Source: a virus. Taken from it: a stretch of 64,000 nucleotides of DNA. The stretch covers positions 1 through 64,000 of the IMG/VR virus record IMGVR_UViG_3300007511_000004. One strand, written 5' to 3'. Shown in pieces: positions 12,622 through 62,328 of the stretch; the first letter of the stretch is position 1, and each line of letters starts with the position of its first letter. The notes beneath the pieces were generated by a model. It had not been told where the DNA came from. It saw only the letters and a list, made by a program, of their open reading frames with translations, and searched no databases. Position numbers and translations under genes: made by a program.

Positions 12622-14457
12622 ATGGCAACTACAATAGAATCGTCTAAATTAGACTTCAATAATATCAAGAGTAAGCTAAAGACCTATCTCAGTCAAGTTG
12701 ATGAATTCTCAGATTACGATTTCGAGGGATCCGGTCTTTCGAATATTCTTGATGTGCTGGCATATAATACCCATTTCAATTCTCTTATAGCTAATATGGC
12801 TATTAATGAGTCATTTCTCGAGACGGCACAACTACGTCCTAGCGTTCTGACCCATTCACAGTCGATTGGATATTATCCACGATCAAGAACTGCTGCTAAG
12901 GCACAAATTCGTCTGTCGGCTGATCTATCCTCATATGTGGGATCTCGCCCAGAAGTACTTACAATAGCACCAGGTAAAACGTTTACTGTAACTATTGATG
13001 GTACCGGCTATACATTTTCCACTAGAGAAACGTTATCAGCGACAGATGACGGCAACGGCGCTTATAAATTCCAGACCTCGGCCGGATCAGAAGAATTTTA
13101 TATCTATGAGGGTAGCACAAAGACTAAGACCTTCCTAGTACCCGATTCCGCTGATTCTCAGCTCTATGTTATACCCGATAAAAATGCAGATACGAGCACC
13201 TTCGATGTGCGGGTCTTCGGAAGTACCAGTACTACTGATTACGACACCTATAGCAATATCAGAGACGCCATTTCAATCAATACCGAATCGCGGAACTATA
13301 TTCTAAAAGAAAGCCCAAATGGCTACTATGAATTAGAATTCGGTAATGGTACTAATTTCGGGAATAAACCGAAACCCGGATATAAGATTACTGTTAGTTA
13401 TCTCTCTTCAAGTGGGGCAGATGCCAATGATGGCAAGGTATTCTCACCAAGTGCAGGTATTACTACAGGTGGCCAAACGTTCACTCTTACTAGCACTACA
13501 GTTACTAAATCAACCGCTGGTGCTGAAAAAGAGACAATCTCAGAGATTAGATCTAATGCGCCACTTACGTATGCAACTCAAAAACGAATGGTTACCGCCG
13601 AGGATTATAACACCCTAATTGCTGCCAACTATCCAACTGTCTCAGATATTACTTCATGGGGTGGTCAGGATAATATCCCGATAGATTATGGTGCAGTGTA
13701 CATATCATTAAAATTTCCCGAGAGTACAGACGCAGCAACCATTACAGCAACTAAGAGTGACATAAGTAAAAATCTAGTTGAGCCACTCTCGACTATTTCA
13801 ATTACTCCGAAATTTATTGATCCTGTAGTAACTTATTTGACCATTACAACTACATTTGATTATAACCCAACCCTTTCAGGCGTCACTCTCCATACTATGG
13901 AAAATAACGTATCCACCGCTATTTCGACATACTTTACAGCGAATCTAGACAAATTCAAAAAAGAATATCGTAGATCGAATCTGCTATCTGTTCTGGATGA
14001 AGTTAGCCCCGCCGTACTATCGACAAAAATCGAAGCGAAGATGTCTCAGCGGTTTACTCCCAAATTGAATACGAATCGAAACTATGACGTCAATTTTCCA
14101 TCACCTATAGCTGCCACGGATGATGAAAACTATATTATCACTTCATCGAGATTTATCTATAATGGGAATATCTGTACTATTCGGAATAAATTAGAGACTT
14201 ATAATTTAGAACTTGTTACTACTGCGGGAGAAGTCATACTAAATAATATTGGCACCTTTACCCCAGGTAACGGCACGGTATCCATTGTGAGTTTGAATCC
14301 CACATCAATCGTAGGTAATTTGAGCTACATTACTATTACTGCAGCTCCTGCTAACCAAGGTGCAATTAAACCTCTTAGAAATTATATCCTTTCACTTGAT
14401 CCTAATTCGACTACTAGGGGTATCATAGATTATCAAACCACTAGAGTGACTCTGTAA
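12622..14457 (+). CDS. gp6: Baseplate wedge subunit
   Basis: LDFNNIKSKLK.YL..EFSDYDFEGSGLSNILDVLAYNTH, ESFLETAQLR, RMVTAEDY. Confidence 0.95.
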   Translation: MATTIESSKLDFNNIKSKLKTYLSQVDEFSDYDFEGSGLSNILDVLAYNTHFNSLIANMAINESFLETAQLRPSVLTHSQSIGYYPRSRTAAKAQIRLSADLSSYVGSRPEVLTIAPGKTFTVTIDGTGYTFSTRETLSATDDGNGAYKFQTSAGSEEFYIYEGSTKTKTFLVPDSADSQLYVIPDKNADTSTFDVRVFGSTSTTDYDTYSNIRDAISINTESRNYILKESPNGYYELEFGNGTNFGNKPKPGYKITVSYLSSSGADANDGKVFSPSAGITTGGQTFTLTSTTVTKSTAGAEKETISEIRSNAPLTYATQKRMVTAEDYNTLIAANYPTVSDITSWGGQDNIPIDYGAVYISLKFPESTDAATITATKSDISKNLVEPLSTISITPKFIDPVVTYLTITTTFDYNPTLSGVTLHTMENNVSTAISTYFTANLDKFKKEYRRSNLLSVLDEVSPAVLSTKIEAKMSQRFTPKLNTNRNYDVNFPSPIAATDDENYIITSSRFIYNGNICTIRNKLETYNLELVTTAGEVILNNIGTFTPGNGTVSIVSLNPTSIVGNLSYITITAAPANQGAIKPLRNYILSLDPNSTTRGIIDYQTTRVTL

Positions 14458-15401
14458 TGTCAACAAGAACCCTATTCGAAAAAAATCGAAGACTCCCCAA
14501 TCTTCGAAAATCTAAAATTACGGAAGTTCTTCCAGGACATTATCCTGAGAGCTATCCTAATCTGGTAAAGTTCCTAGATGAATATTATGAATCAATGGAT
14601 CAACCGGGTGAAGTTACGGATACTCTGGAATATGGGTTATTTGCATTAAGAGACCTAGATGAGATAGAACTCGAATACATTGATCATTTATTCTATGAGA
14701 TTGGTAATGGTGCTGCAGCCGATTATTTTAAACATCCTAGGTTCGCCGGGAAACTTCTTACCCTTCTAATTCGGAATAAGGGTAATCTATTTTCGACCCA
14801 GCTGTTCTTCAGATTATTTTTCGACGAGGAACCAGAGGTCACCTATCCTAAGAATAACATTTTACATGTATTCAGCGGCGATAGTGACAAACAGGGTGAG
14901 GCTACTATCGGACCCGAAAGCCTCCGATACACGCAGGATGGCGCGAGATATCAACTACTATCGGTCCTTATTAAATCAGGTCAAAGCTTTGATAAGTGGT
15001 CGGAGCTTTATAAGAGATTCGTCCATCCGGCAGGATTCTATCTTTCTTCTGCAGTGGGTACAGAGTCTCTTGCTACAATGGACTTTGAGGCCAAATCGGC
15101 AATTAACGAACTTCCGACTGAAATCTCATTTGAACTTCCGGCATATATGGACTTCGGTACCCCTTATCCGGAAACTACACTACTTACAGATTCAGACGGT
15201 ACAACGTTTATCACTAACGCAGCGAAAACAATTGAGAGATATCAGGATCTGGCAATGAATGTCGTCGATTCTGCATACGATAATATCTTCCATGCGGTAC
15301 GACTAAATACATTTACACTGGATGATTCGGATGCCACTGGTCCAAGTGTTGATGGTACCTATGAAACAATTGATACGGATAAATATGATTCCACGTGGTA
15401 A
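14457..15401 (+). CDS. Baseplate wedge initiator (short gp7-like)
   Basis: YPNLVKFLDEYYESM, NKG..STQLFFRLFFDEEPEVTYPK, FVHPAGF. Confidence 0.7.
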   Translation: MSTRTLFEKNRRLPNLRKSKITEVLPGHYPESYPNLVKFLDEYYESMDQPGEVTDTLEYGLFALRDLDEIELEYIDHLFYEIGNGAAADYFKHPRFAGKLLTLLIRNKGNLFSTQLFFRLFFDEEPEVTYPKNNILHVFSGDSDKQGEATIGPESLRYTQDGARYQLLSVLIKSGQSFDKWSELYKRFVHPAGFYLSSAVGTESLATMDFEAKSAINELPTEISFELPAYMDFGTPYPETTLLTDSDGTTFITNAAKTIERYQDLAMNVVDSAYDNIFHAVRLNTFTLDDSDATGPSVDGTYETIDTDKYDSTW

Positions 15402-15417
15402 AGGGGTCATAAATTTA

Positions 15418-15425
15418 CATAAATA
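15418..15425 (+). promoter_or_regulatory. T4-type late promoter
   Basis: CATAAATA in the intergenic gap about 30 nt upstream of the gp9-like gene. Confidence 0.65.
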
Positions 15426-15453
15426 AAGTAAACATATTACAATTGGATGAGAA

Positions 15454-16236
15454 ATGACTAGAGAAAATCTTGCATTAGGATCTTCAGCTAACGATGGTAC
15501 AGGTGATACGTTACGAGCTGCTGGTACTAAGATCAACAACAACTTCGTAGAATTGTATCGAGCGTTCGGCATCGATAGCGATAACCTTTCGCTGAATGTT
15601 ACTCTTGACAGTGATCATGTAGTCTTTGCCGGTGCTAGTTATTCAACTTCGCTGGGTATTACCGCTCCAACTGCTAATCGATCTGTGGATCTTCCTGATG
15701 CTGCAGGTACAGTGGTACTTGATACCGCTACACAGACCCTTACGAATAAGACCCTTAAGTTACCTTCGATCAATGATTCCAATAATAATGAATTGATCAA
15801 GTTCACTACTACATCCTCGGCTATTAATGAATTCACGATCGCAAATGCTGCCTCCGGTGGTAAACCCACACTAACATCAACTGGTGGGGGTACCAATATT
15901 ACCATGAAACTAGCTGGTAAAGGCACCGGCTCTGTGGAAGTTGCCAAAGCCGCTTATTCCGCGGTAACTATTACAAGCAATGGTACTGCCTCTGAAATCG
16001 CATCATATATTATCTGTAATAAAGCTTCAGCATTAGCAGTTGTTCTTTCAGATGGTACAACAGATGGTGAATATAAAATCTTTACTAATAAAGGTGGTGG
16101 GACTGCAACAGTTACCCCAGATAATTTCTCTGCAGGCACCTCCTTCGCTCTACCTCAACATACAGGTGCTCAAACAATCTGGGACGGCACAAACTGGTAT
16201 TTAATCGGCGCGGATAGTGACGTAACCGTAAGCTAA
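15454..16236 (+). CDS. Baseplate wedge tail-fibre connector (gp9/gp10-like N-terminus)
   Basis: LGSSANDGTGDTLRAAGTKINNNFVELY motif. Confidence 0.75.
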   Translation: MTRENLALGSSANDGTGDTLRAAGTKINNNFVELYRAFGIDSDNLSLNVTLDSDHVVFAGASYSTSLGITAPTANRSVDLPDAAGTVVLDTATQTLTNKTLKLPSINDSNNNELIKFTTTSSAINEFTIANAASGGKPTLTSTGGGTNITMKLAGKGTGSVEVAKAAYSAVTITSNGTASEIASYIICNKASALAVVLSDGTTDGEYKIFTNKGGGTATVTPDNFSAGTSFALPQHTGAQTIWDGTNWYLIGADSDVTVS

Positions 16237-16248
16237 TAGGAATTAACA

Positions 16249-17589
16249 ATGGCAGCAATCCTCACAGATTCACTTAAAAGACAAATTCTGGATGGAGTCC
16301 TTACCTCAATTGGGACTGATTCGGATACATATTATATTGCAATTGGCCGATCGGAGCAGTGGAATGATTCGGATATCGCATCTGATCCCCAGAATCATGT
16401 TCACGATGAAAGAGATTTCCGCCTCAGTATGCAGTCTGTTAAATCTGCAGAAGACGTTTCATACGTGGCACCTAGAAATAATTGGACGGCGGGAGCGGTT
16501 TATACCGCTTATGACGATAAAGTGGTTGGCCATCCAGCCCAACCTTACTTTGTAATTACTGACGAACATAACGTATATCTTTGCATCCAACGAGGTTTGA
16601 ATACCGATGGTACCCAAAAGACTTCGCTAGTTAAACCTACTGGAACTGGTACTTCTCTCATTTCTACCGGAGATGGATATATCTGGAAATATATGTATTC
16701 AGTCTCGAGTGCATCCGCCCAGAAATACCTTTCTTCGAGCTATATGCCAGTACAGCAGACCGATTCAGATGCAGCCGTTGCAACACCCACAATTGATGGA
16801 TTACAATGGGCTGTACAAGGTGCAGCAATTGGCGGCGAGATTACTCAGATCGCAATTACTGATGGTGGTAGCGGATATGTATCTGCACCAACGGTCTCTA
16901 TTGAAGGAGATGGTTCCTCTGCGGCCGGTACGGCATACGTATCAGGTGGGCAAGTTAAAAAGGTCGAAATGACTAATAGAGGGTCAGGATATCAGTTTGC
17001 TAAAATCTCCTTTACTGGAGGTAGTGGCAGTGGAGCAAGCGCTCGTGCAGTTATCCCATCCAATAAAGAAGGTTTGGGTGATAATCCCATTTTGGACTTT
17101 AGAGCAAAAGCCGTACTTCTCAATACCAAACCCGATGGGCTAGAGGCTGGCGATTTCATTTTGAACGATTATCGCCAAATCGCGATCCTTAAGAATCCAA
17201 CTACCTATACTCACGATAGCGATTTTTATACGGGTACTTCGGCTTCAGCTCTTAAAACCATTCGTTTAACCCTAACCGGCGACGCGTCTTCATTCAGTAA
17301 CGATGATATCATCACAGGTAGCACGAGCGCAAGTCAAGCTATTCTTGATTACATTGATTCCGATACTCTATTCTTCCACCAGACCGATACAACAGGTTAT
17401 GGTAGCTTTACTACTGATATCGGTGGGGCAATCACTTCTAATAACGGTGGATCTGGAACTGTTCAAAGCCTTATAGATAGTTCAGATATTAATCCATTCT
17501 CTGGGGATATCCTATATATTGAGAATCGGGCAGCAATTACCAGAACCGAAACACAAACTGAGGATCTAAAGGTAATCATCCAACTTTAA
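16249..17589 (+). CDS. gp8: Baseplate wedge subunit
   Basis: PRNNWTAGAVY, YFVITDEHNVYLCI, GDGYIWKYMY, YRQIAILKNP, SGDILYIENR..TEDLKVIIQL. Confidence 0.9.
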   Translation: MAAILTDSLKRQILDGVLTSIGTDSDTYYIAIGRSEQWNDSDIASDPQNHVHDERDFRLSMQSVKSAEDVSYVAPRNNWTAGAVYTAYDDKVVGHPAQPYFVITDEHNVYLCIQRGLNTDGTQKTSLVKPTGTGTSLISTGDGYIWKYMYSVSSASAQKYLSSSYMPVQQTDSDAAVATPTIDGLQWAVQGAAIGGEITQIAITDGGSGYVSAPTVSIEGDGSSAAGTAYVSGGQVKKVEMTNRGSGYQFAKISFTGGSGSGASARAVIPSNKEGLGDNPILDFRAKAVLLNTKPDGLEAGDFILNDYRQIAILKNPTTYTHDSDFYTGTSASALKTIRLTLTGDASSFSNDDIITGSTSASQAILDYIDSDTLFFHQTDTTGYGSFTTDIGGAITSNNGGSGTVQSLIDSSDINPFSGDILYIENRAAITRTETQTEDLKVIIQL

Positions 17590-17601: not shown

Positions 17602-20600
17602 ATGGCAACAACACTAGTTCAAAATACATTTGCAAATACCTATAAGGATGATTATAGTGACAGCGATCATTATCATCGTATCTTATTTAATGGGGGTAAA
17701 GCTCTACAAGCTAGAGAACTGACTCAGTCGCAAACTATTATCCAAAAAGAAATCGAGAGACTTGGCAACAACCTCTTTAAAGACGGTGGCGCAGTTAATC
17801 CTGTTCAGAACGTCTTAGTAGATACTAACTATTCATTCGTTAAGCTGCAGGATGAGACTAGCCTTAGCTCGAGTCTCGTTGGCACCACTTTTACTGCGAC
17901 TTCCGGAGTAAAGGGTAAGGTTCTTCGGGTAATCTCCGCAGAAGACTCAGACCCAGCAACTCTATATGTCCAGTATATTTACGGTTCAGGCGTTTCAGCG
18001 CACAGCACATTCCAAGCCGGTGAAAATATTTCAAACGGCAGCGAGAGCTTCACAGTTCAGACAACTAACACTACGGCTAATCCAGCTGTTGGTAATGGTA
18101 CTAAAGCGAATGTTGACGCTGGTGATTTCTTTGCAGTAGGCCACTTCGTTCACGCCTCGGCACAAGAGGTTGTTCTAAGCAAATATTCCACTACTCCAAC
18201 AGAAGTTCTAGGCTTCATTGTTAACGAAGAGATCGTAACCGAAGCTGATGATACCGGATTATATGATAATCAATCCGGCAACCCTAATCTTACGGCGCCC
18301 GGTGCACACAGATATAGAATTAGATTAACTCTTAGCAAACAGTCTGATGCCGCTGCAACGGATACTTTCATTTTTGTCTGTAATATCATCAATGGCTCAG
18401 TAGAGCAGATTAATACCGGCCGTGATGATTACAATAAGATTTTAGATCTTATGGCAGAAAGAACTCGTGAAGAATCTGGAAGCTACGTTGTAAAACCCTT
18501 TACTGCGTTCTTTGAAGCAGACTCTGATGACGGATTCCTCAAACTGAATATTGCCGATGGTATTGGTTATATTAATGGTTATAGAGCGGCTCCAGGGCCT
18601 CAAAAGATTCGAGTATCGAAACCTACTACAACCCTTGCATTCAACAATGAAGCGGTTGCTGCGAATTACGGTAACTTTATTAACGTCTCTTCAATTAAGG
18701 GTCTACCTAATATTGGTACCTACGAAGTATGGAATTTAAAAGATAATGCTACCTATGCAAGTGGTAACACTATTGGTACTGCAAGAATCAGAGCCGTAGA
18801 AGAAAGTGGTGGAAATCATAGGTTCCACATCTTCGATCTTAAGATGCACACTGGAAAGAACTTCCGCGATGTAAGGTCTATCGGAACTAGCTCTACCCGA
18901 AGGGGGATATTGGTACTAGAGAATGGTGTTGCAGTAATCAAAGAGGCAAATAATAATAACGCGTTCTTTGCATTATCTAAATCTAGACCATCATCCATCG
19001 GTAATGATCATACCTATAACGTTCTTCGTTATGCAACAGGATCGGTTAGCTCTAATCAGACAACTATCTCCAATGCAGGCGCTTCAGAGGCTTGGTCAAG
19101 TACAGATGATTGGATCATTACTCGTGGTGATACCGGTGCGATAGTTACCCCAACATCCGTTACTATTTCTGAGCCGAATGCCACCATCAACACATCTGGT
19201 ATTTCCGATGCTACAACCCTGACGGTTATAGCGATCTGCCAAAAAGGTGCAGGATCACCAGTTCCTTATAAGACCAAAACTCTTACAGAAACTACTGCTA
19301 CTGCCAGTGTTACTACAGACTCTGATGGATCATATATTGATCTAGGTAAAGCGGATGTTTGGTCGGTCTCAAGAGTTAGAACTGTTGATTCCGATGGTAC
19401 TGACGTATCATCTCGCTTCTATGTAGATAATGGTCAAAGAGATAACTTTTACGATCACGGTCGAATGGTACTAGCACCAGGACAATCAGACCCCGGTGGT
19501 AACGTATTCGTACGCTTTAAATACTTTGCACATTCTGGTTCGGGTGACTTCTTTACAGTTAATTCGTATCCAGTTGGCACGGGGACAAATCAGATTACAT
19601 ATGCTCAGATCCCATCGTATCGTCAAAACGACGGTCAGACGATTGATCTTCGCGATGTACTGGACTTTAGACCTACTATCAATAATGCTGGCACAGGATA
19701 TAGTGGCACAGGAGCAATTGTAGCGGATCTTCCTAAGAATACCGACTTGATCACAATTGATCCCACTTACTATATTCCTAGAAAAGATAAATTGACTATC
19801 GAGGAAACTGGGACATTTAGATATGTCCAGGGAACATCAGACTTTGACCCTAAACTCCCACAGACCCCTGGCAATGCATTAGAACTTTATCACTTCTCAT
19901 TGAATGCAAACACGCTTGATAAGCAGGATCTAACCTCTAGATATATCGATAACCGTCGTTATACAATGAGAGATGTTGCAAAGCTTCATGATAAGATTAA
20001 TAAAGTTGAAGAACTAGCTACCCTGAGTCTACTGGACATCTCGGCCTCAACTCTTGAAGTACTAGACTCAAATGGCTTATCCAGAACTAAAGCTGGTTTC
20101 CTAACCGATGACTTTAAGGATCACCGTGCAGCTAACGTTGATGATCTGGAATATCGCGCATCCATTGATCCAACTATGGGTATCCTAAGACCTTCTTATA
20201 GAGAGAAGAACGTCGGCTTAGTATTCGATTCTGCTGATGGATCCGTATCTAATACAATCCTAATCGGCGACGATGTGATGCTTAATTATAGTGAAACCCT
20301 TCTGCTAGAGCAGACCCAGGCTTCTCGATTCCATAATGTTAACCCATATACCGTTATCAACTATAATGGTACACTTACAATATCGCCTAGTTCGGATGAG
20401 TCAAGAGACACAAGTACGATTTCACTCCGCACTAATGGTCAAAATGAAGTTAGCATTGAGACCTTCCTGAATAACGTATTAGGTGAACAAGATACTCAAA
20501 ACGTCCTTACTACCATTTCTAATAATCCTGAATTCGGTGGTCGGGAAGAGTTCATCCGTAATAACATCTCCCTACAAAGTGCGAATAACTTCACCTCACA

Positions 20601-51004: not shown

Positions 51005-51630
51005 AATGAAATACCTGCATTGATGGTATACCGATTAACGTTATTATTGGTTAACCTCTTTACTGAATGTACCAAGCGGGGGTTTCCATTATTCAATAGA
51101 ATTACTTTCCCGTTAGCTGGATACACAGTGTGCTTAGTTTCGACCTCCCCGTCAGGCCAGGTTCTTTCGCCGAGTTTAAGATACGATTCCCACTCATTAT
51201 CCCATCTACTTTCCTCAGTGAAATAGATTAGGAATCCGATATCGTGATCTTCTACCCCATCCCAATGCCATCCAAGCTCCGCTGATCCGTTCCACACATC
51301 TATGAATTTTAATTTATGATTATAGCCGCAAGTTCTTTTAAACCACCCGGTGTAATGCGGATCACCGAATAATTCATTTATCACCTCTATATAAATTGGA
51401 GGAACAGACTCGACGCTTTTTTGATTGACTTGCCCCTCACGATCTCTGTGATATTTTTTAGCCTTCTCGGGTGCACCATCTGCTGCATTTATACTCCAGT
51501 CTGGCACACCTTTATATTCAATGTGATCTACCCAATTCTCAGATAAAAGCTGACCCCAGACCATAGCATTAAGATGGGTAGGCAGCTCCCATTCATCATA
51601 CCCATCCTTGTAGAATTTATCGACGTTCAT
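50995..51630 (-). CDS. 2OG-Fe(II) oxygenase (paralog of 48795-49514)
   Basis: WHWDG, LNNGNPRLVHSV, RYT. Confidence 0.8.
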   Translation of the reverse strand: MNVDKFYKDGYDEWELPTHLNAMVWGQLLSENWVDHIEYKGVPDWSINAADGAPEKAKKYHRDREGQVNQKSVESVPPIYIEVINELFGDPHYTGWFKRTCGYNHKLKFIDVWNGSAELGWHWDGVEDHDIGFLIYFTEESRWDNEWESYLKLGERTWPDGEVETKHTVYPANGKVILLNNGNPRLVHSVKRLTNNNVNRYTINAGISLWN

Positions 51631-52100
51631 ATTGCCGTTGTTCCTAGCCGAGTTTTTCCCTCACCTGTAATATATAGCTGAAGGTCTGATACCTTGGCTA
51701 TTCTAATGATACCGTAGAAGGGCGAGGCTGTGTGATAGACGTAAGCGGGGAAGGTTACTGTCATACCAGTAGTCGGTTTAATAATATATGGTTCGAAGTG
51801 TGAGGCCAACTGCGAGGGGTAGCCACGATTAGCATTACCTCGCGGGTCGTGAAGTATTAGTTCCCCGCCCTCCCCTGAGACGTGTTCATAGTAGATGGAT
51901 GTGAAGTGAGCGTGACCGTGATTATGAGTCGCTAGCCAATAGCCAGACTGTGGGCTTGTTTCCCAGTTACGGATAGCGTGATCAAGTTGATCAAGATCCT
52001 CCTGAAAATAGATTTGTAAATATTCTTTGAATCGTGTCCCAGGATCAGGGTTACCGTTCTCTTCAACGTGTATCGGGGTGGACCACATCATAAACCTCAC
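51627..52100 (-). CDS. Putative 2OG-Fe(II) oxygenase (TIGR02466-like)
   Basis: HNH, GGELILHDPR, FPAYVYH. Confidence 0.75.
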   Translation of the reverse strand: MRFMMWSTPIHVEENGNPDPGTRFKEYLQIYFQEDLDQLDHAIRNWETSPQSGYWLATHNHGHAHFTSIYYEHVSGEGGELILHDPRGNANRGYPSQLASHFEPYIIKPTTGMTVTFPAYVYHTASPFYGIIRIAKVSDLQLYITGEGKTRLGTTAI

Positions 52101-53052
52101 TTAAAAAACATGTATCTTGAGTTCTGAAACTTTGGATGTGGTTTGATAAAAAACATCCCATATTACAATACTGGAAGTGTGCACATTCAAGACAGTTGTA
52201 TTGTTTGAACCATTTCTCTTCCATCTCAAATTTGGATGGTTGATAATTCCGTTTTAGATCTTTTACTAGAATTGTACATGGGCCTGATGTTCCATCGGGT
52301 AAAATGGTAACAGTATCCATGCAGGTCATTTGCTTCTTTACCTTGTTTTGCATATCGTTAAAGGGTAGAACCTTTGGATACTTATCCAGCATGTATAGTA
52401 TAAAATCCCGAAGCATAATATCATTAGGTAGGAAGGTATCCATATTAGCTTCGGGCGTATAATAGTCAAAGTAGATACCAAATCGATCATAAAGGTAATC
52501 GAAAAACGGTACATCGTCTCTCATGAATTTCCGGATACTCGGCTTCGTCATAATGACATTCACCGATTTAATATAATCCCTATACCTTCTTACATTCTCC
52601 TGGAATATCGGAAAGGTGGTCTTATTGAATCGGGCAGAAGGGTCGTAACTAGTTAATAAAGTAACCGGATCCGATCCTAACATTATATCGAATCTTTCGG
52701 TGTTTGTAAATACGAAGTTAGTAGTAAAACAAATTTCTAGATTAATACCTTCGCTGAATGCCCAATTATTTAATTCACGTATGACCTTACCGTAATCCTG
52801 AAATACCCTATCAGGTAAAGCGTCAGCGAAGACCTCTCCGCCCATAAAATGTACACTATAGTCCTCTCGGGGTAAACTCTTAATCCGACCCTTGATTATA
52901 TCGATCTTTTCTAGAATGGTATCGATACCGAAAAAACTATTATGGTCCTGACTGCAGAATTTACAATTCAGATCGCAATATTCGAAGAGAGTGACGATGA
53001 TCTCTCCAGTCTTACCCCTTTTACCCGTCCGGCTTATTACATCAATTGACAT
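52063..53052 (-). CDS. Radical SAM/SPASM enzyme
   Basis: CDLNCKFC, MGGE, FTTN, CLECAHFQYCNMGC. Confidence 0.9.
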   Translation of the reverse strand: MSIDVISRTGKRGKTGEIIVTLFEYCDLNCKFCSQDHNSFFGIDTILEKIDIIKGRIKSLPREDYSVHFMGGEVFADALPDRVFQDYGKVIRELNNWAFSEGINLEICFTTNFVFTNTERFDIMLGSDPVTLLTSYDPSARFNKTTFPIFQENVRRYRDYIKSVNVIMTKPSIRKFMRDDVPFFDYLYDRFGIYFDYYTPEANMDTFLPNDIMLRDFILYMLDKYPKVLPFNDMQNKVKKQMTCMDTVTILPDGTSGPCTILVKDLKRNYQPSKFEMEEKWFKQYNCLECAHFQYCNMGCFLSNHIQSFRTQDTCFLSEVYDVVHPDTR

Positions 53053-53578
53053 TCTTGAATACCATATTACAAACCAAACTGATCCGGGTATCTTCTCCTA
53101 GGTATGGAGTTACTTCGTGCCAGATGTAATAAGGAGCTGCGATCAATAATCCGGTTTTTGGCTCTATCTCAACATAAGGTTCTCGACAGAATGATTTCCG
53201 ATTAGTGAACCTCGGGTCGTACAGTCTCAGCTTACCGCCTTCCTCTGATTCGTTTGAATAGTAAACGGCAAAGGCATCTATCTGATCATGGGTATGACAG
53301 GATTTGAAGTCCCCACGATCCATCGGATTGATGATATTAAAAGAATCCATATCATAGTCGGGTGGATGGTCATAGTGGAAACATAGTGCATCGAAAGCTG
53401 ATTTAAAGCGCTCGCGGATAGTTCTCATATTATCAGAGACCCACAAATCCACATTATAGTCAGCGGGTTTCGTTGGAAGAGTGGCGATAATAGCCTTGGA
53501 GGTATTTAAGATATCCTTATTAAACTCGTCGCTATCATCATATTGTTTAGTGTATATAAAGGATTCAAATTCTATCAT
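53042..53578 (-). CDS. Putative 2OG-Fe(II) oxygenase (TIGR02466-like)
   Basis: HTH, GGKLRLYDPR, WHEVTP, RISLVCN. Confidence 0.8.
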   Translation of the reverse strand: MIEFESFIYTKQYDDSDEFNKDILNTSKAIIATLPTKPADYNVDLWVSDNMRTIRERFKSAFDALCFHYDHPPDYDMDSFNIINPMDRGDFKSCHTHDQIDAFAVYYSNESEEGGKLRLYDPRFTNRKSFCREPYVEIEPKTGLLIAAPYYIWHEVTPYLGEDTRISLVCNMVFKNVN

Positions 53579-54705
53579 AACCTAAAATTATTCAATTCTC
53601 CACTATTAGCATTTTTCAATTTATAGATGTAGTTTAGGAATAATACATTTACCTTCAATCGATCTTCACATTCGAATGCCGAAGTGGAAAGGGGCTTCAG
53701 TTCTTCCGCCATGATCGAACCAATTCCCGCAGTGTCGATATACCCCAGTGACAGAGAATCGTATACAGCATCCATTATAGTATCAGATAGATTTTCCTCG
53801 AATGGGGTTTGGCTATTCTGGGTAACTGCTTGCATCATTTCAGATCGGATTGTCGAGAATCGGATATTAGGATGACGGTTTACATAATCGACTCTGTGGT
53901 ACTTTCCTTCATCATCGAATAACCAGCGGGTTCTATCATTAGTATCCTTAAGCGCTATTAGATCATCTTCAGCATTCACATCACTGATCCCGAGAACCCC
54001 TTGGACCCAGCTTTTATAGATGTTATAGAATAGGTGAGATTTGAGGAACTGAACCTCCTCGTTACATTTCTTACCCAATAGTTTTAACATCTTCTTTCCG
54101 AGGCTACCATTATGATCAGACCCGCTTGCGAGGTAATTTGCAATTAAGAACTCCACCCCGATATTAGGAATAATCTCCGATCGTAATACCGAATAATCTG
54201 CCCATGATAGATCTAACGTTATGGCATTCCACTTAGTGATAAATTCAGACTTACTTAGATAAGTAATCCCCTTAGCATTATTCTTTTGTTTTTCCAGCCC
54301 ATCGTTTGCGCCCCATAGAAAAGTAGTGGTATTTTCTAACTGGGAATTGAGACTGAATGTATTATAAATCTTCCATGCTATATCAACATGTAAAGTTTCA
54401 AATAGTAGCTTTATGAATTTAATAATTATCTTATCATAATTATCACGATTGACGTGGATATTCACTGTACCTTTATTCTTAAGCGCAGTAAAGAAATCTT
54501 TATCATTATCATATGGGGCGTCATCCCCGGTCCACAGTTCCTCTAGGTCGTCTACATTGTGCATCTGGGCCTTCAGATCCCTCCAGGCAGTCTTCAAATC
54601 TTCGAGGAAGATGGAGTTTAAATTAGGGGTAATAACCATGTTATCGACATTATTGTCCATTAAGTAATCGTACTTAACGTAAACTTTATCAAAGAGCAGA
54701 AACAT
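53575..54705 (-). CDS. Hypothetical protein
   Basis: 376-aa ORF coupled within the operon. Confidence 0.6.
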   Translation of the reverse strand: MFLLFDKVYVKYDYLMDNNVDNMVITPNLNSIFLEDLKTAWRDLKAQMHNVDDLEELWTGDDAPYDNDKDFFTALKNKGTVNIHVNRDNYDKIIIKFIKLLFETLHVDIAWKIYNTFSLNSQLENTTTFLWGANDGLEKQKNNAKGITYLSKSEFITKWNAITLDLSWADYSVLRSEIIPNIGVEFLIANYLASGSDHNGSLGKKMLKLLGKKCNEEVQFLKSHLFYNIYKSWVQGVLGISDVNAEDDLIALKDTNDRTRWLFDDEGKYHRVDYVNRHPNIRFSTIRSEMMQAVTQNSQTPFEENLSDTIMDAVYDSLSLGYIDTAGIGSIMAEELKPLSTSAFECEDRLKVNVLFLNYIYKLKNANSGELNNFRL

Positions 54706-55432
54706 ACTCTAATTCCTTTTGCATTTGGTGTTGAAAGTCTTCATGGATAATTTCCCCTGATGAGACCCCATATGTTAACATAGCCATGAAATTATTAGGA
54801 GTAGTCCAATAGTAAAACATATTTTTACCTTTGAACATCGGTTCGTTGAATTGTTTTTCCATATAGTATACTGGGATATCTAATGCGAGGATGGCCTGAG
54901 CCTCCTCCCATTCATACATTTTTACATAATTTACCCCAATGTAATCATAGTCGTCAATTGTCTCAAACTCGTTCTTTGCTGCTTCCCGTATCGCTTCATC
55001 ATTAATGGTAGTTACATTAAAAACTGACCCGGAAGCAATAGCGGTTAGCCACCTATTAATTATTTCAGGATTCTCTGATCGGAATTCCGCCATCTCATCA
55101 TCATTTAGAATATATTCAATATCGTAAATCTCGTCGATCCATTCGAACCCGGCTTCTTGATAGAGCATTTTAAGTACGGTCAATTCGGAATGAACCGAGT
55201 TAATGATCAACCTATGGTTCATATAGACCAGAATATAGTTTTTACGATCAGCTAATGATACCTTATCCCAGCCAACTATATTACAGGGGATATCCAGATT
55301 GCTGACGTAGGTAATCAACTTATCTTCTTTTAATATGCTTTCGCTATAATCAATATTAAAGATGATACTATCATCATTAAAATACTCCTTCAATTCCTCC
55401 ATGGGAATAGGAGCCACAGTATCTTTTATCAT
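54689..55432 (-). CDS. Hypothetical protein
   Basis: 247-aa acidic ORF immediately downstream of the candidate precursor. Confidence 0.6.
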   Translation of the reverse strand: MIKDTVAPIPMEELKEYFNDDSIIFNIDYSESILKEDKLITYVSNLDIPCNIVGWDKVSLADRKNYILVYMNHRLIINSVHSELTVLKMLYQEAGFEWIDEIYDIEYILNDDEMAEFRSENPEIINRWLTAIASGSVFNVTTINDEAIREAAKNEFETIDDYDYIGVNYVKMYEWEEAQAILALDIPVYYMEKQFNEPMFKGKNMFYYWTTPNNFMAMLTYGVSSGEIIHEDFQHQMQKELEYVSAL

Positions 55433-55435
55433 AAT

Positions 55436-56011
55436 TTATCTACGTCCTCTTGAAGTGTGACAGTCGTAATGACAACTATAATGACAGGTATCAATGTCTC
55501 GGGTGAGGGCGGAATCCCTTACATTCCGATATGCGGTTCGTACTGATGACAGATACGATTCCATTTCACTGGAGGATATGGTCCTACCAGAATTCACTGT
55601 ACTGGAATACCCTGGCGCGGATACGGATGATCGAGCATTGTATGTTCCGGATGTGGGCTGATACGCTTTAGCAGTACTATCAATCTGCAACTCACTAGTA
55701 CCATTGTTATCGAAATATCTTCGAGCCCGCATATTCCTCATATGGGTCCAGTCAGTTGCGCCGGTGACCATCCCAGTCCGGACTGTCGAAGCAGTAATAG
55801 TTCCCCCGGAAGAACCTAGATCATTATCTGACATATATCCAGTGCTGCTAGGTAAAGATGCAGTAGAACCCCCGAACCGATCGTTAGGCATTTCGGAAAA
55901 AGGTTTACTGTTAGTCCCCCATGATACTGAGGCTTTCGCGTCGGCCGCAACATAATCCTGCCATCTCTTACGAACGTTACTTCGACTGATATTATTTGTT
56001 AAGGATACCAT
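55436..56011 (-). CDS. Ser/Thr-rich protein with C-terminal (CHxx)3-RGRR tail; candidate radical SAM substrate/precursor
   Basis: Ends DTCHYSCHYDCHTSRGRR*; these are the only Cys in the protein; embedded among maturase-type enzymes. Confidence 0.65.
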   Translation of the reverse strand: MVSLTNNISRSNVRKRWQDYVAADAKASVSWGTNSKPFSEMPNDRFGGSTASLPSSTGYMSDNDLGSSGGTITASTVRTGMVTGATDWTHMRNMRARRYFDNNGTSELQIDSTAKAYQPTSGTYNARSSVSAPGYSSTVNSGRTISSSEMESYLSSVRTAYRNVRDSALTRDIDTCHYSCHYDCHTSRGRR

Positions 56012-56012
56012 A

Positions 56013-57035
56013 TTAAATCCTGTCGATCTGTTTATTTGTATTTATGTCTTTTAACAACATCATTAGAGTTTTCGGGGAGGGACATGTATCACCTTCCCAT
56101 TCTAATTGATGGCAATCTGATCCACACACGTCGAATACCGGGCATTCGAAACAAGCGGGGTTTCGATTCAATTCCTTCATTATAATACTACATCTGCCGT
56201 TTGATTTTAAAACTTCAGACGCAGGCTGATTTATATGCCCATATGCGTTTTGGGGAGCGGTATTAGGGCATCCAGCAATTGAACCATCAGCATTAATAGT
56301 AATTAACTTTTGTTCACAGTCTCGACACCAGGTACCTTGGCTCGGATTGTTTTTCTCGAACTTGGCGTAAATATTCTCCATGATTACATGATATATGGAA
56401 TCCCGGTCATTCAATTGATTGTGGTATCTAACAAACCAATTATCGATCTCTTTATTCGAAGGCCATAATCCGGAATTAAGCTTGGCGTTGCCATCCATAG
56501 TAATCCGCTCAAAGTCTAATTCATGGATACCGAGACTTGACATGTAGGCAATGATCTGCTTCGGTGGCATATCTAGAACAGATTTACTCATACTAACGAA
56601 GCATTTAACAGTATATCCCATACCCACTAATAATTTGACATTATCCTCCCATAATCTTCGCTGTTTTACATTGGCGAATCTGATAGTAGGATCCCAAGAA
56701 GTACCGATGCGCTTATTGAGAACATCCTCAAAGAATTTGAGCTTCTCTTCGGTGAGTTTATACGTAAGGTTTGATGTGATACCATAATTATCCCCATCGG
56801 TCAATTCAACGAATCTTCGCAACGAGGACACGGGCGCGAGCATTGGCTCACCACCATGAAACTCATACCAAATAGAATCTGCAGTTAATTGATTAACCCA
56901 GGCTGCAGTTGCCTCGGGATCGAAGTAGATCTTCTGACCAGAAATCCCAGAAGTGAAACAATGAGAACAATTGAGATTACAGGTCTCAGTTGTTTTCACA
57001 TAAACGGATAAGCGTTTCGGTGTCGTTAATTGCAT
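56013..57035 (-). CDS. Radical SAM/SPASM enzyme
   Basis: YVKTTETCNLNCSHC, FHGGEP, CRDC..GCP..CFECPVFDVCGSDC..CP. Confidence 0.92.
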   Translation of the reverse strand: MQLTTPKRLSVYVKTTETCNLNCSHCFTSGISGQKIYFDPEATAAWVNQLTADSIWYEFHGGEPMLAPVSSLRRFVELTDGDNYGITSNLTYKLTEEKLKFFEDVLNKRIGTSWDPTIRFANVKQRRLWEDNVKLLVGMGYTVKCFVSMSKSVLDMPPKQIIAYMSSLGIHELDFERITMDGNAKLNSGLWPSNKEIDNWFVRYHNQLNDRDSIYHVIMENIYAKFEKNNPSQGTWCRDCEQKLITINADGSIAGCPNTAPQNAYGHINQPASEVLKSNGRCSIIMKELNRNPACFECPVFDVCGSDCHQLEWEGDTCPSPKTLMMLLKDINTNKQIDRI

Positions 57036-57456
57036 ATGAAACCATTAATGCCTTTTTATCGTTGATTGCCCGATGCCGGACGTTTGCCGGGATTAGTAGG
57101 GTCTCTCCAGGATGAATCGTATACACCTTACCCTCGACCTCCATCACTTTCTCTCCATCATGACATTCTATGTGAACATCATGTGGATCTGTATGCTCTT
57201 TGAATGTAGTACCATGTGCCGGATTGTAGAAGAAATGCATAGTTCTATCGTTTAGTTGATACAATCTTTCCATCTGCTCAACCTTAATAGTGCATTGACC
57301 CTCTGCTATAATAACCCCCAGTCGGGCTAAATATCCACAAAAGTCCAGATCACTATTAAGATAATGTTGAAGGCCGTCTCTATCTATATACGACACATCA
57401 TGATTTAGGTAGCACTCGGGAGAGTCTACGAAATTAAAAAAGTCTTTGAAAAACAT
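56986..57456 (-). CDS. Cupin/JmjC-like protein
   Basis: FKEHTDPHDV..C.DGEK, PGETLLIPANVRHRA. Confidence 0.75.
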   Translation of the reverse strand: MFFKDFFNFVDSPECYLNHDVSYIDRDGLQHYLNSDLDFCGYLARLGVIIAEGQCTIKVEQMERLYQLNDRTMHFFYNPAHGTTFKEHTDPHDVHIECHDGEKVMEVEGKVYTIHPGETLLIPANVRHRAINDKKALMVSYAINDTETLIRLCENN

Positions 57457-57520: not shown

Positions 57521-59458
57521 TTGGAGAATATTATGAGAAAAATTTGTATAAATCTTAAATCGCGCCGGGATAGACGAACTCGGATCAATACTGAGATAGC
57601 TCCTAAAATTGGTGAGATTGAGTTCATTACCGCTGTAGACGGTAAAACCGCTGACTTCAGTTCACCTATTAATAATACCAACTTTTCTTCCAAGAAGGGG
57701 TGGCGAGATCCATTCTCCCGACGGCCTATTACGGTTGGTGAAATGGGATGTTTTGCTTCCCATTTTAAAGCGTGGGAAATGGTCTTAGAAGCGGCTGAGC
57801 CTTGCATTATATTTGAAGATGATATCGATATTAACTGGGACCTTTGGGATGAATCGAAGCTCGAAGAAATCATGAAGGTGAATAAGGGGGATATTAGCCT
57901 TCTTCTCTTGGGATATAATGAAAATGAACCGGAAAATGTTATCCAACATCCAGAGTATGATAATGTTATCATTCCGGCCTACCCCTACAATGCACACGCT
58001 TACATATTGAATCCCCACGCAGCACAGTGGATGGTTGCATGCGAAATCAATAAGGAAGTTATCCCTGTTGATGAATTCATTTCAGATATGAGAAGGGAAT
58101 ATGGCAAAAACGTCAGAGCGCTAGATACCAATTGGGTCAATCAATTACCTAGATCTGAGTGGGGGAGTAATATAGAACCACAATCTGATCAGGATTGGTT
58201 TATTGATTTTGGTATGCACGCCGTAACAGTTGGCACGGATACCACTCGATGCAATAAGTTAATGTCCAGCGCTACCATAAATGGGTTTGATGTAAAGAAC
58301 CTCGGGATCAATAAAAAATGGACTGGTGGCGATATGACAGTAACTGGCGGGGCGATGAAGATCCGCTTACTACGAGAATATCTTACCAAATTAAAACCCC
58401 ATGACGTGGTTCTGTTTACGGATGCCTATGATGTATTTTACACGGGTTCATTGGAAGAGATCGTCCGCCGATATTTAGATACAAAGTTTGATATTCTATT
58501 TGCCGGAGAGAACAACTGCTGGCCCGATGAATCTTTAGGAGATCTGTTCCCCGATACTATTTCTGAATACAAGTATCTGAACAGTGGTACCTTTATAGGC
58601 ACGTCGAGTGCTATATTGCAGCTAATTCAATCAGATGTTCCTGATGATTATGATGATCAGCTCTATTATCAACAAAGGGTATTGAATATCCCTATCAATA
58701 ATCAGCATATCCAGGACCACGGTTTAACTATTGGATTAGATGTTGAACAATACATCTTTACCACCTATGATCCTGAATGTTACGTATTGAATAATCAGGT
58801 CTTTAATCCCAAGACGCATTGTTACGGATTAGTGTATCACGGAAACGGAGGGACCGAGGCAAAGGAAGACTTTGCACGGAAATACGATCAGATATTTAAA
58901 CCTTCCACTGCTTTGTATATCCCATCCATGGGAAAGTTTGATATACTTGAAAAGGATATGCTACTTGTTGATTTCATGACAAGTGATCAATGTGAACAGT
59001 TAATTGAAATTGCTGATGGGCACGGGGAATGGGAGCCATTACCTGGAGATAAATTCCCAGCCTATGAAATTCGAATGAAAGAATTGGGCCTATGGAATGA
59101 TCTCCTTAAACATTGGGAAGAAAATCTCTATCCTATTATCGAGAAGCATTGGTGGCCAATTCAAATGTATGGTTTGAGAGATGCCTTTGTAATGAGGTAT
59201 TCAGTTGATACACAGAAATCTCTCGCTATGCACCATGATGCAAGTCTTGTTACGGCTTCAGTTAAGTTGAATGATAATTATAAAGGGGCGGTATTAGAAT
59301 TTCCTCGGCAGGGTATCAGTAATGCGGATATCCCACCAGGTAAGGCAATATTATTTCCGGGTATGGTTACCCACGGACATGAATGCACTACCTTACAAGA
59401 GGGGGTTAAATATAGCCTTACTATGTGGTCAAGTCGCTATACTGGAGATGAAAATTAA
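57521..59458 (+). CDS. Tri-domain protein: GT25 (COLGALT-like) + PLOD-type glycosyltransferase + lysyl-hydroxylase-like 2OG dioxygenase
   Basis: INLKSRRDRR, AVDG, WRDPFSRRPITVGEMGCFASH, FEDD; GGAMKIRLL, LFTDAYDV, AGENNCWPD, YLNSGTFIG, DDQLYY; FVMRY, HHDAS, FPG.VTHGHE. Likely start is the ATG at 57533. Confidence 0.85.
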   Translation: MENIMRKICINLKSRRDRRTRINTEIAPKIGEIEFITAVDGKTADFSSPINNTNFSSKKGWRDPFSRRPITVGEMGCFASHFKAWEMVLEAAEPCIIFEDDIDINWDLWDESKLEEIMKVNKGDISLLLLGYNENEPENVIQHPEYDNVIIPAYPYNAHAYILNPHAAQWMVACEINKEVIPVDEFISDMRREYGKNVRALDTNWVNQLPRSEWGSNIEPQSDQDWFIDFGMHAVTVGTDTTRCNKLMSSATINGFDVKNLGINKKWTGGDMTVTGGAMKIRLLREYLTKLKPHDVVLFTDAYDVFYTGSLEEIVRRYLDTKFDILFAGENNCWPDESLGDLFPDTISEYKYLNSGTFIGTSSAILQLIQSDVPDDYDDQLYYQQRVLNIPINNQHIQDHGLTIGLDVEQYIFTTYDPECYVLNNQVFNPKTHCYGLVYHGNGGTEAKEDFARKYDQIFKPSTALYIPSMGKFDILEKDMLLVDFMTSDQCEQLIEIADGHGEWEPLPGDKFPAYEIRMKELGLWNDLLKHWEENLYPIIEKHWWPIQMYGLRDAFVMRYSVDTQKSLAMHHDASLVTASVKLNDNYKGAVLEFPRQGISNADIPPGKAILFPGMVTHGHECTTLQEGVKYSLTMWSSRYTGDEN

Positions 59459-59466: not shown

Positions 59467-59500
59467 GAAGTAAATATAGTATAAACTAATAGGATCTCAA

Positions 59501-60253: not shown

Positions 60254-60257
60254 TAAA

Positions 60258-61148
60258 ATGCGTAATCCGTATTTCAGATATGATGTAAGATCAGAACAAA
60301 ATCTTTTCGAAGATATCACTATTGAATCCTTGAAAATTTATGGTCAGGATATCTACTATCTTCCACGCGATATTATTGCTGAAGATAAGATCTTAGGTGA
60401 AGACGTCACTTCTAGGTTTAACTCGTCATATAAAGTTGAGATGTACATCGAGAACACTGATGGCTTTGATGGAGAGGGAGATCTATTCACCCGATTCGGT
60501 ATCGAAATTCGGGATCAGGCAACCTTCGTTGTTTCTCGTAAGAGGTGGCAACAGACGGTTCAGAGGTATGATAATGATATCAATGCTCCTCGGCCCGCAG
60601 AAGGGGATTTACTTTATATCCCATTTTCCCGTAAGTTATTTCAGATCATGCACGTTGAGCATGAACAGCCATTCTATCAGTTAACCAACCTTCCGACATA
60701 TTCACTACGTTGTGAACTATTCGAGTATAACGGAGAAGATTTCGATACTGACGTAGAGGTTATCGATTCCATTGAGCGGGATTATGCGTATACCTATATG
60801 CTTACCCTTAACGATAGCGCTCAATCTGGTACATTCGTATTAGGGGAAACTGCTAATATGACCCTTGCATCCGGTACTATTATCTCGGGTGAGGTATCTC
60901 GTTGGAGCGATTCGGATAATAAGCTGGGGCTTATCCACGTCGGAGCTAATGATGGTAACTATCACGTATTTGTTACGGATAGAAGTATTAGCGGTGCATC
61001 CTCTTCTGCAACAGGTACTGTAACGTTAGTAGAAGAAGAGGGTCTAATCAAAGCCGGATCAACTGATACTGAGCAGAACCAATATTTCGATAGTCTAGTT
61101 GATTTCTTGGACTTCTCAGAAAGCAATCCATTCGGAGATCCCGCATGA
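60258..61148 (+). CDS. gp14: Neck protein
   Basis: SEQNL.ED..IES.KIYGQD.YYLPR, GDLFTRFG, P.EGDLLY, DFSESNPFG. Confidence 0.95.
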   Translation: MRNPYFRYDVRSEQNLFEDITIESLKIYGQDIYYLPRDIIAEDKILGEDVTSRFNSSYKVEMYIENTDGFDGEGDLFTRFGIEIRDQATFVVSRKRWQQTVQRYDNDINAPRPAEGDLLYIPFSRKLFQIMHVEHEQPFYQLTNLPTYSLRCELFEYNGEDFDTDVEVIDSIERDYAYTYMLTLNDSAQSGTFVLGETANMTLASGTIISGEVSRWSDSDNKLGLIHVGANDGNYHVFVTDRSISGASSSATGTVTLVEEEGLIKAGSTDTEQNQYFDSLVDFLDFSESNPFGDPA

Positions 61149-61196
61149 CATTTAAAGTATTTTTAATAAACTTATCCAGAGTGTAGGAGCAGGAAT

Positions 61197-61958
61197 TTGT
61201 TTGGATCACATTTCTACCATGAAAGGATTAGGAAATCAGTAGCCACCTTCGGCTCACTGTTTAATAACCTATATGTGGTACGGCAGGATGCTTCGGGTGG
61301 GGTATTAAACCAGCAGAAGGTTCCACTGGCATACGCACCGCGGATGAAATACCTTGAGAGGATTCGGGAACAGCAGGATCTGGCTACTGATCAAAAGGTG
61401 GCGCTGAAGCTCCCCCGCATTTCGTTTGAAATGACTTCGATTCAGTATGATTCGACACGTATGACCAGTAAAACAAACAAATTTAGTGCTTATGATACAG
61501 ATACCAATAAGAAAGTTTTTTATGCGGGTGTACCATATAACCTATATTTCGACTTAAACATATATGCTAATACGCAAGAAGATGCGCTGCAAATAGTCGA
61601 GCAGATCATTCCATATTTTGCTCCGCAGTACACATTGACCCTTAAACCATTTAATGCTTATCCGACTATCAAAGAAGATGTTCCGATCACTATTGTATCA
61701 TCGGCCTTCACTGATGACTTCGAAGGTCCGGTAGACGTACGAAGAACTATTATCTACACGCTTTCATTTGAGATGAAAGTAATGTTCTACGGGCCAATCG
61801 GGGATGCATCCATTATCAGGAGTGTACAAACTAATTACTTCCTTATGGGTGATTCTGACGGACCAGTTACCGAGATTACAACAGTACCGAACCCGCTTGA
61901 CGTCGATCCGGATTCCGACTACGGCTTCACAACTACGAAGGTGGATTATATAGGATAA
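61197..61958 (+). CDS. gp15: Tail sheath stabilizer/terminator
   Basis: MFGSHFYHERIRKSVATFGSLFN, VPLAYAP, LPRISFE, QIVEQIIPYF; TTG start with AGGAG SD. Confidence 0.95.
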   Translation: MFGSHFYHERIRKSVATFGSLFNNLYVVRQDASGGVLNQQKVPLAYAPRMKYLERIREQQDLATDQKVALKLPRISFEMTSIQYDSTRMTSKTNKFSAYDTDTNKKVFYAGVPYNLYFDLNIYANTQEDALQIVEQIIPYFAPQYTLTLKPFNAYPTIKEDVPITIVSSAFTDDFEGPVDVRRTIIYTLSFEMKVMFYGPIGDASIIRSVQTNYFLMGDSDGPVTEITTVPNPLDVDPDSDYGFTTTKVDYIG

Positions 61959-61962
61959 GATA

Positions 61963-62328
61963 ATGAGTGACTCTGATAGACAAGTTGAAGATGATTTTGA
62001 ATATTCTCGTAAGGTATATCTGGATTTAATTGCTACCGGGCAAGAAGCCCTGGGATCAATGTTAGATGTGGCGGATGAGAGCCAACACCCTAGATCTTAT
62101 GAAGTACTGTCCGGTATGATTAAGAATATTAGTGATGTAAACGACCGGCTTATGGATATCCATAAAAAGAAGAAAGATATCGCAAAGCCCGCTGATCAAG
62201 CTGCCTTACCCCCCACCACCAATAATCTATTCGTAGGATCAACTGCAGAATTACAGAAGATGCTTATTTCGAATAAAAAGGAGGAAGATAACGTGATTGA
62301 TGTGAGTGAATATAGTGATGACAAATGA
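61963..62328 (+). CDS. gp16: Terminase small subunit
   Basis: DFEYSR, HPRSYEV, NNLFVGSTAELQKML. Confidence 0.92.
   Translation: MSDSDRQVEDDFEYSRKVYLDLIATGQEALGSMLDVADESQHPRSYEVLSGMIKNISDVNDRLMDIHKKKKDIAKPADQAALPPTTNNLFVGSTAELQKMLISNKKEEDNVIDVSEYSDDK

Follow-up and report, generated by a model that had tools for sequence, protein, structure and literature searches.

We analysed the first 64 kb of a complete T4-like phage genome, IMG/VR virus record IMGVR_UViG_3300007511_000004 (hereafter, this whole stretch of 64,000 nucleotides is ‘the window’), in which the outer tail proteins are studded with one tripeptide, Asp-Ser-Asp (DSD), denoted here the ‘tag’. The record is a single contig of 146,556 bp with terminal repeats present. 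Gene content and order are those of a T4-like phage: gp25, gp6, a gp7-like gene, a gp9/10-like gene, gp8 and a VrlC/DUF4815 gene are followed by a first set of fibres and an enzyme island; a second set of fibres and an enzyme operon on the minus strand come next, ahead of gp13-gp17. No near-identical phage was found in the phage database, where the nearest record is Phage C48C1 (Kyanoviridae), with a gp8 identity of 36-38%, and the hosts of the nearest isolates are Pelagibacter, Methylophilales and cyanobacteria.

The tagged proteins are all encoded on the plus strand. At the baseplate end lie a gp7-like wedge protein (14457-15401; 314 amino acids (aa); DSD at residues 142, 245 and 290), a gp9/gp10-like protein with a T4_gp9_10_N domain (15454-16236; 260 aa; residues 41, 52 and 254) and the wedge protein gp8 (16249-17589; 446 aa; residues 24, 40, 172, 323 and 370), which is identified by a phrog_438 match (8e-86) and also by a gene order, gp6-gp7-gp10-gp8, that fits T4. 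A VrlC-like/DUF4815 structural protein of 1778 aa (17602-22938) carries five DSD and two Asp-Ser-Ala (DSA) tripeptides, and a 394-aa tail fibre protein (23729-24913; matching phrog_892 and others) carries two DSD. Beyond the enzyme island, two DSD lie in a 117-aa phrog_1084 protein (38972-39325), of a family related to ‘L-shaped tail fibre assembly’, one in an 85-aa protein (39331-39588), two in a 526-aa structural or fibre protein (39614-41194) and one in an 828-aa tail fibre (41250-43736). This last fibre also has six DSA and two Asp-Ser-Gly (DSG), and four of these eight DS[AG] sites (two DSG and two DSA) fall inside a repeat, GND[YF]VDS[GA]. At the neck, gp14 (60258-61148; phrog_460) has one DSD and the tail sheath stabiliser gp15 (61197-61958; phrog_227) has two. 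The small terminase gp16 (61963-62328), which is not a virion protein, has a single DSD at residue 3, within chance for its composition (0.21 expected). The per-protein counts match exactly those of the original prediction, which had tallied about 28 DSD in structural proteins by eye (3, 3, 5, 5 and 8, with 4 in gp14/15/16). Its remark that the enzyme genes hold only one DSD is likewise correct: the sole case in the window is a minus-strand 2-oxoglutarate (2OG)-Fe(II) oxygenase (53042-53578). All sites are isolated tripeptides, and the window proteins contain no Ser-Asp (SD) repeats.

Tripeptides were counted in the 68 translated open reading frames (ORFs) of the window, where 29 DSD are observed and 8.4 are expected from within-protein shuffles (z 7.3, the top z among all tripeptides). 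The signal sharpens in the tagged set, 14 proteins of the outer baseplate, the fibres and the neck (5,627 aa in all): the original prediction had proposed a comparison with shuffled proteins, and this gives 28 observed DSD where 3.6 ± 1.8 are expected, an excess of about eightfold; none of 5000 shuffles exceeded 13. The other orderings of the same residues are rare in this set, with DDS found twice and SDD three times, such that DSD makes up 28 of 33 (p 1.5e-9). When the whole genome is counted, without any post hoc choice of proteins, DSD still accounts for 38 of 58 arrangements of D, D and S (p 5e-7), and the remainder of the genome (41 kaa, or thousand amino acids) has DSD, DDS and SDD 10, 6 and 9 times.

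The requirement for each of the three residues is strict. In the tagged proteins, D comes next after 28 of 57 DS dipeptides and precedes half of the SD dipeptides; the central position of D-x-D is Ser in 28 of 61 cases, with DGD and DND found once each. Thr, Glu and Asn do not act as substitutes: DTD occurs 4 times with 4.1 expected, and DSE, ESD and ESE are all absent. DSA and DSG had also been described as numerous; DSA does show a mild excess (12, with the other orderings at 2-7), 4 of the 12 being in one tandem repeat, and DSG shows none (4, against 0-11). The sites are encoded by 13 distinct 9-mers with background codon usage, placing selection at the level of the protein, as had been proposed from the varied codons, and ruling out a DNA-level signal. 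At most one DSD each is found in gp5, gp25, gp6, gp13 and the collagen-like fibre, and the same holds for the large ORFs that follow the window, whose assignment to capsid, portal, sheath and tube is by position in the T4 gene order.

The excess is reproduced in relatives. Among 119 metagenomic relatives of gp8 (43-81% identity, from a large protein collection), DSD:DDS:SDD is 222:18:10. At 50% identity or above, sites 24, 40 and 370 stay DSD in 79-88% of sequences, corresponding to the 97th-99th percentile of tripeptide conservation (mean 20%), and in more distant relatives the conserved sites are 323 and 370. About ten positions of gp8 recur as DSD and are occupied in a lineage-specific manner, and conserved sites exchange DSD with DSA or DSN. 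This combination of conservation and site turnover is how sequons behave.

Five relatives found via gp8 (45-58% identical) were fetched with their neighbouring genes and together give 75:7:11. DSD is always present in their gp7-like, gp10-like, gp8 and VrlC/DUF4815 proteins, with extra copies in fibres, gp14 and gp15; gp5, gp25 and gp53 have none, and gp6 has a single copy in one of the five (L172). Aligning these five with the phage of the window shows that site 290 of the gp7-like protein and site 41 of the gp10-like protein (LG.DSD.LS) are DSD in all six, that two DUF4815 sites, residue 20 among them, are DSD in five and DSA in the sixth, and that many other sites have been gained or lost. 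In C48C1, none of the five gp8 sites is DSD (SSN, ELD, EPT, DGD and VDT stand there instead); its fibres are rich in DSD, including a repeat, LDL[VI]TDSDIT, in 8 copies with one tag per unit, and its genome as a whole gives 42:10:13. C48C1 also has in common with the window the DSD at residue 94 of the phrog_1084 protein and the gp15 segment DPDSDYGF. The control sets lack the excess: 80 cyanophage-like loci (284 kaa) give 75:58:87, the whole genome of pelagiphage Mosig 9:14:15 and the structural region of HTVC008M 3:7:2. In one uncultured marine T4-like clade the tag has arisen as a derived feature under selection, and it is not a property of the folds that carry it.

Mapping of DSD sites onto a predicted structure, as the original prediction had suggested, covered gp8. 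The model was built from a 96-sequence alignment (predicted local distance difference test score, pLDDT, 94.4; 35 distant sequences had given an unusable pLDDT of 54) and matches T4 gp8 (Foldseek, 1n7z, E 5e-13). Secondary structure assigned by DSSP places the five DSD in two loops, a helix N-cap, another loop and the two-residue tip of a beta-hairpin, positions in keeping with the surface loops that had been anticipated. Orthologues have other turn formers at these positions (DG, NG, NN and DGD), and on this model the motif appears to colonise pre-existing exposed turns.

A further association lies outside the window, where the genome carries a second sugar cluster comprising a GT8 glycosyltransferase (GT), an epimerase, two GT25 and a GT8-like gene together with a 207-aa ORF (genome 135849-136472). 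The cassette order GT25, GT25, GT8-like, 207-aa (genome 133952-136472) is kept in 43-47 of 49 IMG/VR loci. The only homologue of the 207-aa family in 50,697 phage records is in the tag-positive C48C1, and a profile of the family has at least 540 matches in marine metagenomes. All tested carriers of the gene have an excess of D-S-[DA], and they include four lineages whose gp8 is as distant as that of cyanophages. DSD:DDS:SDD is 46:6:11 in G006, 21:1:2 in G009, 9:3:0 in G007, 15:4:2 in G008 and 11:1:0 in G018, next to the C48C1 ratio given above; G016 has 11 motifs in one 613-aa protein. In two more distant carriers, G010 (L251-L256) and G018 (L349-L350), the dominant motif is D-S-A rather than D-S-D (DSA 47 against 7-13 for the other orderings in G010, and 22 against 0-7 in G018), indicating that the third position of the tag differs among lineages. 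The 207-aa gene was not found in Mosig, HTVC008M or five partial tag-negative contigs. Separately, an 851-aa Ala-rich fibre-like protein in L204 (11054-13609, minus strand) lies about 450 bp from the 207-aa gene and has 19 DSD, most of them in a repeat of ~33 residues, TTAF[GQ]NADSD[AV].

We favour, at a probability of roughly 0.45, the reading that DSD is the sequon for a phage-encoded serine modification, most plausibly O-glycosylation. Selection would keep the tripeptide on exposed turns in proteins of the outer baseplate, the fibres and the neck. A phage-encoded enzyme would recognise it and act on its central serine while the proteins are still in the cytoplasm, either ahead of assembly or as assembly proceeds. 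The adduct would most plausibly be a sugar, giving the host-facing parts of the tail a coat made by the phage, and in some lineages the preferred form of the tag would be Asp-Ser-Ala. The serine modification, the sugar nature of the adduct and the responsible enzyme are all three inferred. A Ser hydroxyl strictly placed between two Asp is more readily explained by enzyme recognition than by a generic preference for acidic residues or turns. Together with this strictness, the restriction to exposed proteins, the conservation with turnover, the exchange of DSD for DSA and the load of glycosyltransferases lead us to prefer a sequon over a cation site or a generic turn. The phage has at least eight GT genes: three GT8-like genes by the fibres, the GT8, two GT25 and GT8-like genes at 130-136 kb, and a GT25-PLOD gene at 57521.

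If the serines are modified, the tail and receptor-binding proteins of widespread ocean phages carry a programmable chemical coat whose positions a sequence would reveal directly. This would have consequences for how these phages recognise hosts, withstand proteases and grazing and keep their particles stable in sea water, and for how fibre and baseplate structures predicted from sequence are read. An excess of DSD over DDS and SDD would also serve as a simple test for phages with modified virions, and a short list of enzymes to express would be at hand.

The 207-aa protein with its GT25-GT25-GT8-like neighbours is, we infer, the best candidate for the writer. The fuller version of the proposal, in which D-S-D (D-S-A in sister lineages) is a three-residue code written by this virus-only family and the GT25-GT25-GT8 cassette, is put forward tentatively and is clearly less probable than serine modification as such. 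It would make this the first phage tail with a glycan coat guided by a sequon, with dozens of defined serines at sites that evolve by gain and loss, like viral glycan shields.

Several observations count against modification of the tag or against the enzymes proposed for it. First, D-S-D-G is a good type I turn, and T4 gp10 presumably has D-G-D at the universally conserved gp10 site; part of the DSD signal could be structural. Second, proteins outside the tagged set show no avoidance of DSD (10 observed, 11.8 expected), and recognition of the tag by a promiscuous enzyme of the cytoplasm might have led to some avoidance. Third, the small GT8-like, the methyltransferase-like and a 168-aa gene of the enzyme island do not discriminate tagged from untagged phages, as each has homologues in tag-free Mosig. 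The original prediction had assigned the writing to this island; three GT8-like genes do lie there close to their proposed targets, and the writing role is not supported, given the Mosig homologues. Fourth, the 207-aa protein resembles PF01973 (MptE/Maf) weakly (Pfam E 0.12, 12.6 bits against a cut-off of 34.6). Finally, the carriers were found through the 207-aa gene itself, with the gp8-derived positives L172-L177 outside the comparison, and the tie between enzyme and tag would rest on co-occurrence that is confounded by shared ancestry.

The strongest competitor to serine modification, although one we consider rather unlikely, is that DSD is a structural or metal-binding turn, either a Ca2+/Mg2+ site or a stable turn or helix cap that stiffens outer tail proteins in sea water without any enzyme. 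The loops, N-cap and hairpin tip of gp8 would suit this explanation, as would the turn formers of its orthologues; Gly follows the tag at 7 of 29 sites (6 of 28 in virion proteins), resembling half of a DxDxDG loop; and Asp is never swapped for Glu, as is usual in Ca2+ loops, in phages that are marine. However, known DxD cation sites leave the central residue free, whereas here it is Ser at close to half of all D-x-D. The same folds in the same habitat lack the motif in the cyanophage-like loci, Mosig and HTVC008M, and sites are gained and lost singly, without conserved partner ligands. In addition, conserved sites can switch from DSD to DSA, the dominant form in G010 and G018, and so have one carboxylate fewer. 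Even as a cation site, a strictly conserved tripeptide confined to one clade on conserved folds would be an unusual convergent gain of a motif.

Somewhat less probable again is a different covalent modification, such as Ser phosphorylation, oxidation or cross-linking by radical S-adenosylmethionine (SAM)/SPASM enzymes, carbamoylation, or Asp hydroxylation by a 2OG or cupin oxygenase. The structural genes are interspersed with unusually many enzymes of protein-modifying type: at least three radical SAM-SPASM, a B12-radical SAM, a carbamoyltransferase, many 2OG oxygenases and a cupin that weakly resembles Asp/Asn hydroxylases. Much of the plus-strand island consists of such genes rather than GTs, namely a split radical SAM plus SPASM (29135-30174), a carbamoyltransferase (30171-31517), a 2OG oxygenase (32390-32926), a radical SAM-SPASM (33876-34826) and a B12-radical SAM (34823-36364), and parts of the island are syntenic in relatives. 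The radical SAM-SPASM at 33876-34826 is present in tag-positive phages (the phage of the window, G006, C48C1 and G010) and absent from Mosig, and C48C1 provides its only match in the phage database. Its homologues nevertheless occur on >100 viral contigs without an excess of DSD. Carbamoyltransferase, 2OG oxygenase and Asp_Arg_Hydrox genes are common in tag-free pelagiphages, and L180, with the smallest island seen, is tag-positive without these genes in its stretch from gp8 to the small terminase.

As an observation in its own right, the radical SAM-SPASM homologues on those contigs (L086-L165) have 58-71% identity and include jumbo-phage fragments that encode structural proteins of >5,000 aa. 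The flanks of the homologues give DSD:DDS:SDD of 79:41:92, and two giant structural proteins 2:2:2 and 2:0:1; the gene was rejected as writer of the tag on these grounds, being common on jumbo-phage contigs that lack the excess.

A non-enzymatic docking motif seems improbable to us; DSD would then be a binding site for some other part of the virion, for an assembly factor or for the host surface, as in a cation-bridged adhesion of outer baseplate and fibres to the cell envelope. The limitation of the tag to the host-facing periphery and fibres would agree with it, as would the spacing of one tag per unit in the fibre repeats of C48C1 and L204. Against it, the tag also marks gp14 and gp15 in the neck, which lie a long way from the host surface, a three-residue stretch is little for an interface between proteins, and no partner was identified.

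The original prediction had linked the tag to the Bacteroidetes-type O-glycosylation sequon, D-(S/T)-(A/I/L/V/M/T), a link that we now regard as very improbable. The two share a length of three residues in which Asp precedes an acceptor Ser, and the DSA variant fits the Bacteroidetes pattern, being mildly enriched here and strongly so in G010 and G018. However, that sequon excludes DSD, and it takes both Ser and Thr as acceptors, whereas Thr is unused here. The class as a whole stands at expectation in the tagged proteins (DS[AILVMT] 18 against 17.6; DT[AILVMT] 23 against 19.8), and DS[ILVMT] is depleted (6 against 13.8). Bacteroidetes O-glycosylation acts in the periplasm on exported proteins; tailed-phage virions assemble in the cytoplasm, and there is no sign of a Bacteroidetes host. 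Chance, composition or a DNA-level signal is refuted, despite the richness of the tagged proteins in D and S, by the shuffle maximum, the rarity of DDS and SDD, the 13 different 9-mers and the replication in independent relatives.

The acceptor context that serine modification would require has its closest precedent in the SdgB/SdgA O-GlcNAcylation of staphylococcal Ser-Asp repeat adhesins, where the acceptor Ser has Asp on both sides (PMC3794999, PMC8561734). By analogy, the phage system would share with it the DSD acceptor context, dedicated cytoplasmic GTs and many sites per surface-exposed protein. The adhesins differ in presenting a long disordered SD repeat, whereas the tags are isolated tripeptides on turns of varied folds, and SdgB/SdgA are GT-B enzymes (GT4), whereas the GTs of this phage are GT8- and GT25-like GT-A enzymes. 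Pfam and NCBIfam scans of the island returned GT8 and GT25 families only and no SdgB-like gene, although no search was aimed at SdgB.

For the biology, the nearest analogue would be virion glycosylation encoded by viruses themselves, as in the O-glycosylation of mycobacteriophage capsid and tail tube and in the capsid glycans that chlorovirus PBCV-1 carries at non-canonical sequons. In these systems the virus supplies its own GTs, which work inside the host cytoplasm without relying on the secretory glycosylation of the host, as we propose here. Their targets are capsid, tail tube or Ser/Thr-rich C-terminal tails; here, unlike in those systems, the capsid, tube and sheath (by gene order) and the inner baseplate are essentially tag-free. 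We are not aware of a Ser sequon of three residues that extends across baseplate, fibres and neck, and literature searches for DSD or a virion sequon in phages found no published description of the motif.

Two enzyme families invite comparison with the candidates. Maf (PF01973) flagellin O-glycosyltransferases attach nonulosonic acids to exposed Ser/Thr of a filament protein. The 207-aa protein is like them in its weak PF01973 match and in having sugar-pathway and GT neighbours; it is unlike them in that the similarity lies under every threshold and its length is about a third of that of Maf. In one Atlas cluster, PF01973 is annotated on 13% of members; a profile of the 207-aa family found no significant match, and no Maf, in the PDB, and no nonulosonic-acid pathway was identified in this phage. 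The second comparison is with glycogenin and the Skp1 alpha-galactosyltransferase, protein-directed cytoplasmic GT-A enzymes of the GT8 class that the small GT family of the island matches around its DxD. The match covers about 75 residues, and tag-free Mosig has homologues of this family as well. Glycogenin adds glucose to a Tyr of its own, and Gat1 elongates a glycan that is already in place.

The GT8/glycogenin-like genes of the island, which adjoin the fibre genes, lie on the plus strand at 26396-26998, 27560-28450 and 28447-29154 and are assigned by Pfam GT8, family hidden Markov models and alignment, with a methyltransferase-like gene at 26949-27581 (plus strand) among them. The gene at 27560-28450 scores 24.7 bits against PF01501 (cut-off 24.3), and the DxD is invariant in the family alignment. 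A profile of the small family (26396 and 28447) against the PDB returned the Skp1 alpha-galactosyltransferase 6mw5 at 6.5e-6 and glycogenin at about 1e-4. The minus-strand operon (45152-57456) encodes a tryptophan-halogenase-like enzyme, four radical SAM proteins, several 2OG oxygenases and the cupin mentioned above; no homologues of its enzymes were found in C48C1 or in the fetched stretches of relatives.

A collagen-repeat tail fibre (PF01391; 43736-45172) has zero DSD. A single 645-aa ORF (57521-59458) joins GT25 to a PLOD-type GT and a 2OG oxygenase, in the manner of a collagen lysyl hydroxylase plus glycosyltransferases. This ORF and the collagen fibre look like a second, separate virion-modification system dedicated to the collagen-like fibre.

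The DUF4815/VrlC-like protein shows two peculiarities in relatives. In L172, a gene of the HlyC family (RTX toxin-activating lysine acyltransferase; 14271-14756) overlaps the end of the DUF4815/VrlC-like gene, an arrangement that hints at possible acylation of this structural protein; in L173, the DUF4815/VrlC-like protein (11367-17042) includes a Hom_end_hint (intein) domain. Finally, the large terminase (TerL) gene of the genome studied here is apparently interrupted (genome coordinates; the window ends at 64000). The TerL N-terminus is matched at 62306-62701 and the remainder, which has 73% identity to the TerL of C48C1, at 63031-64776. An ORF of 143 aa (62646-63077) that weakly matches T5orf172, an endonuclease-type domain, separates the two parts, and the arrangement points to an intron or some other insertion carrying a homing endonuclease.

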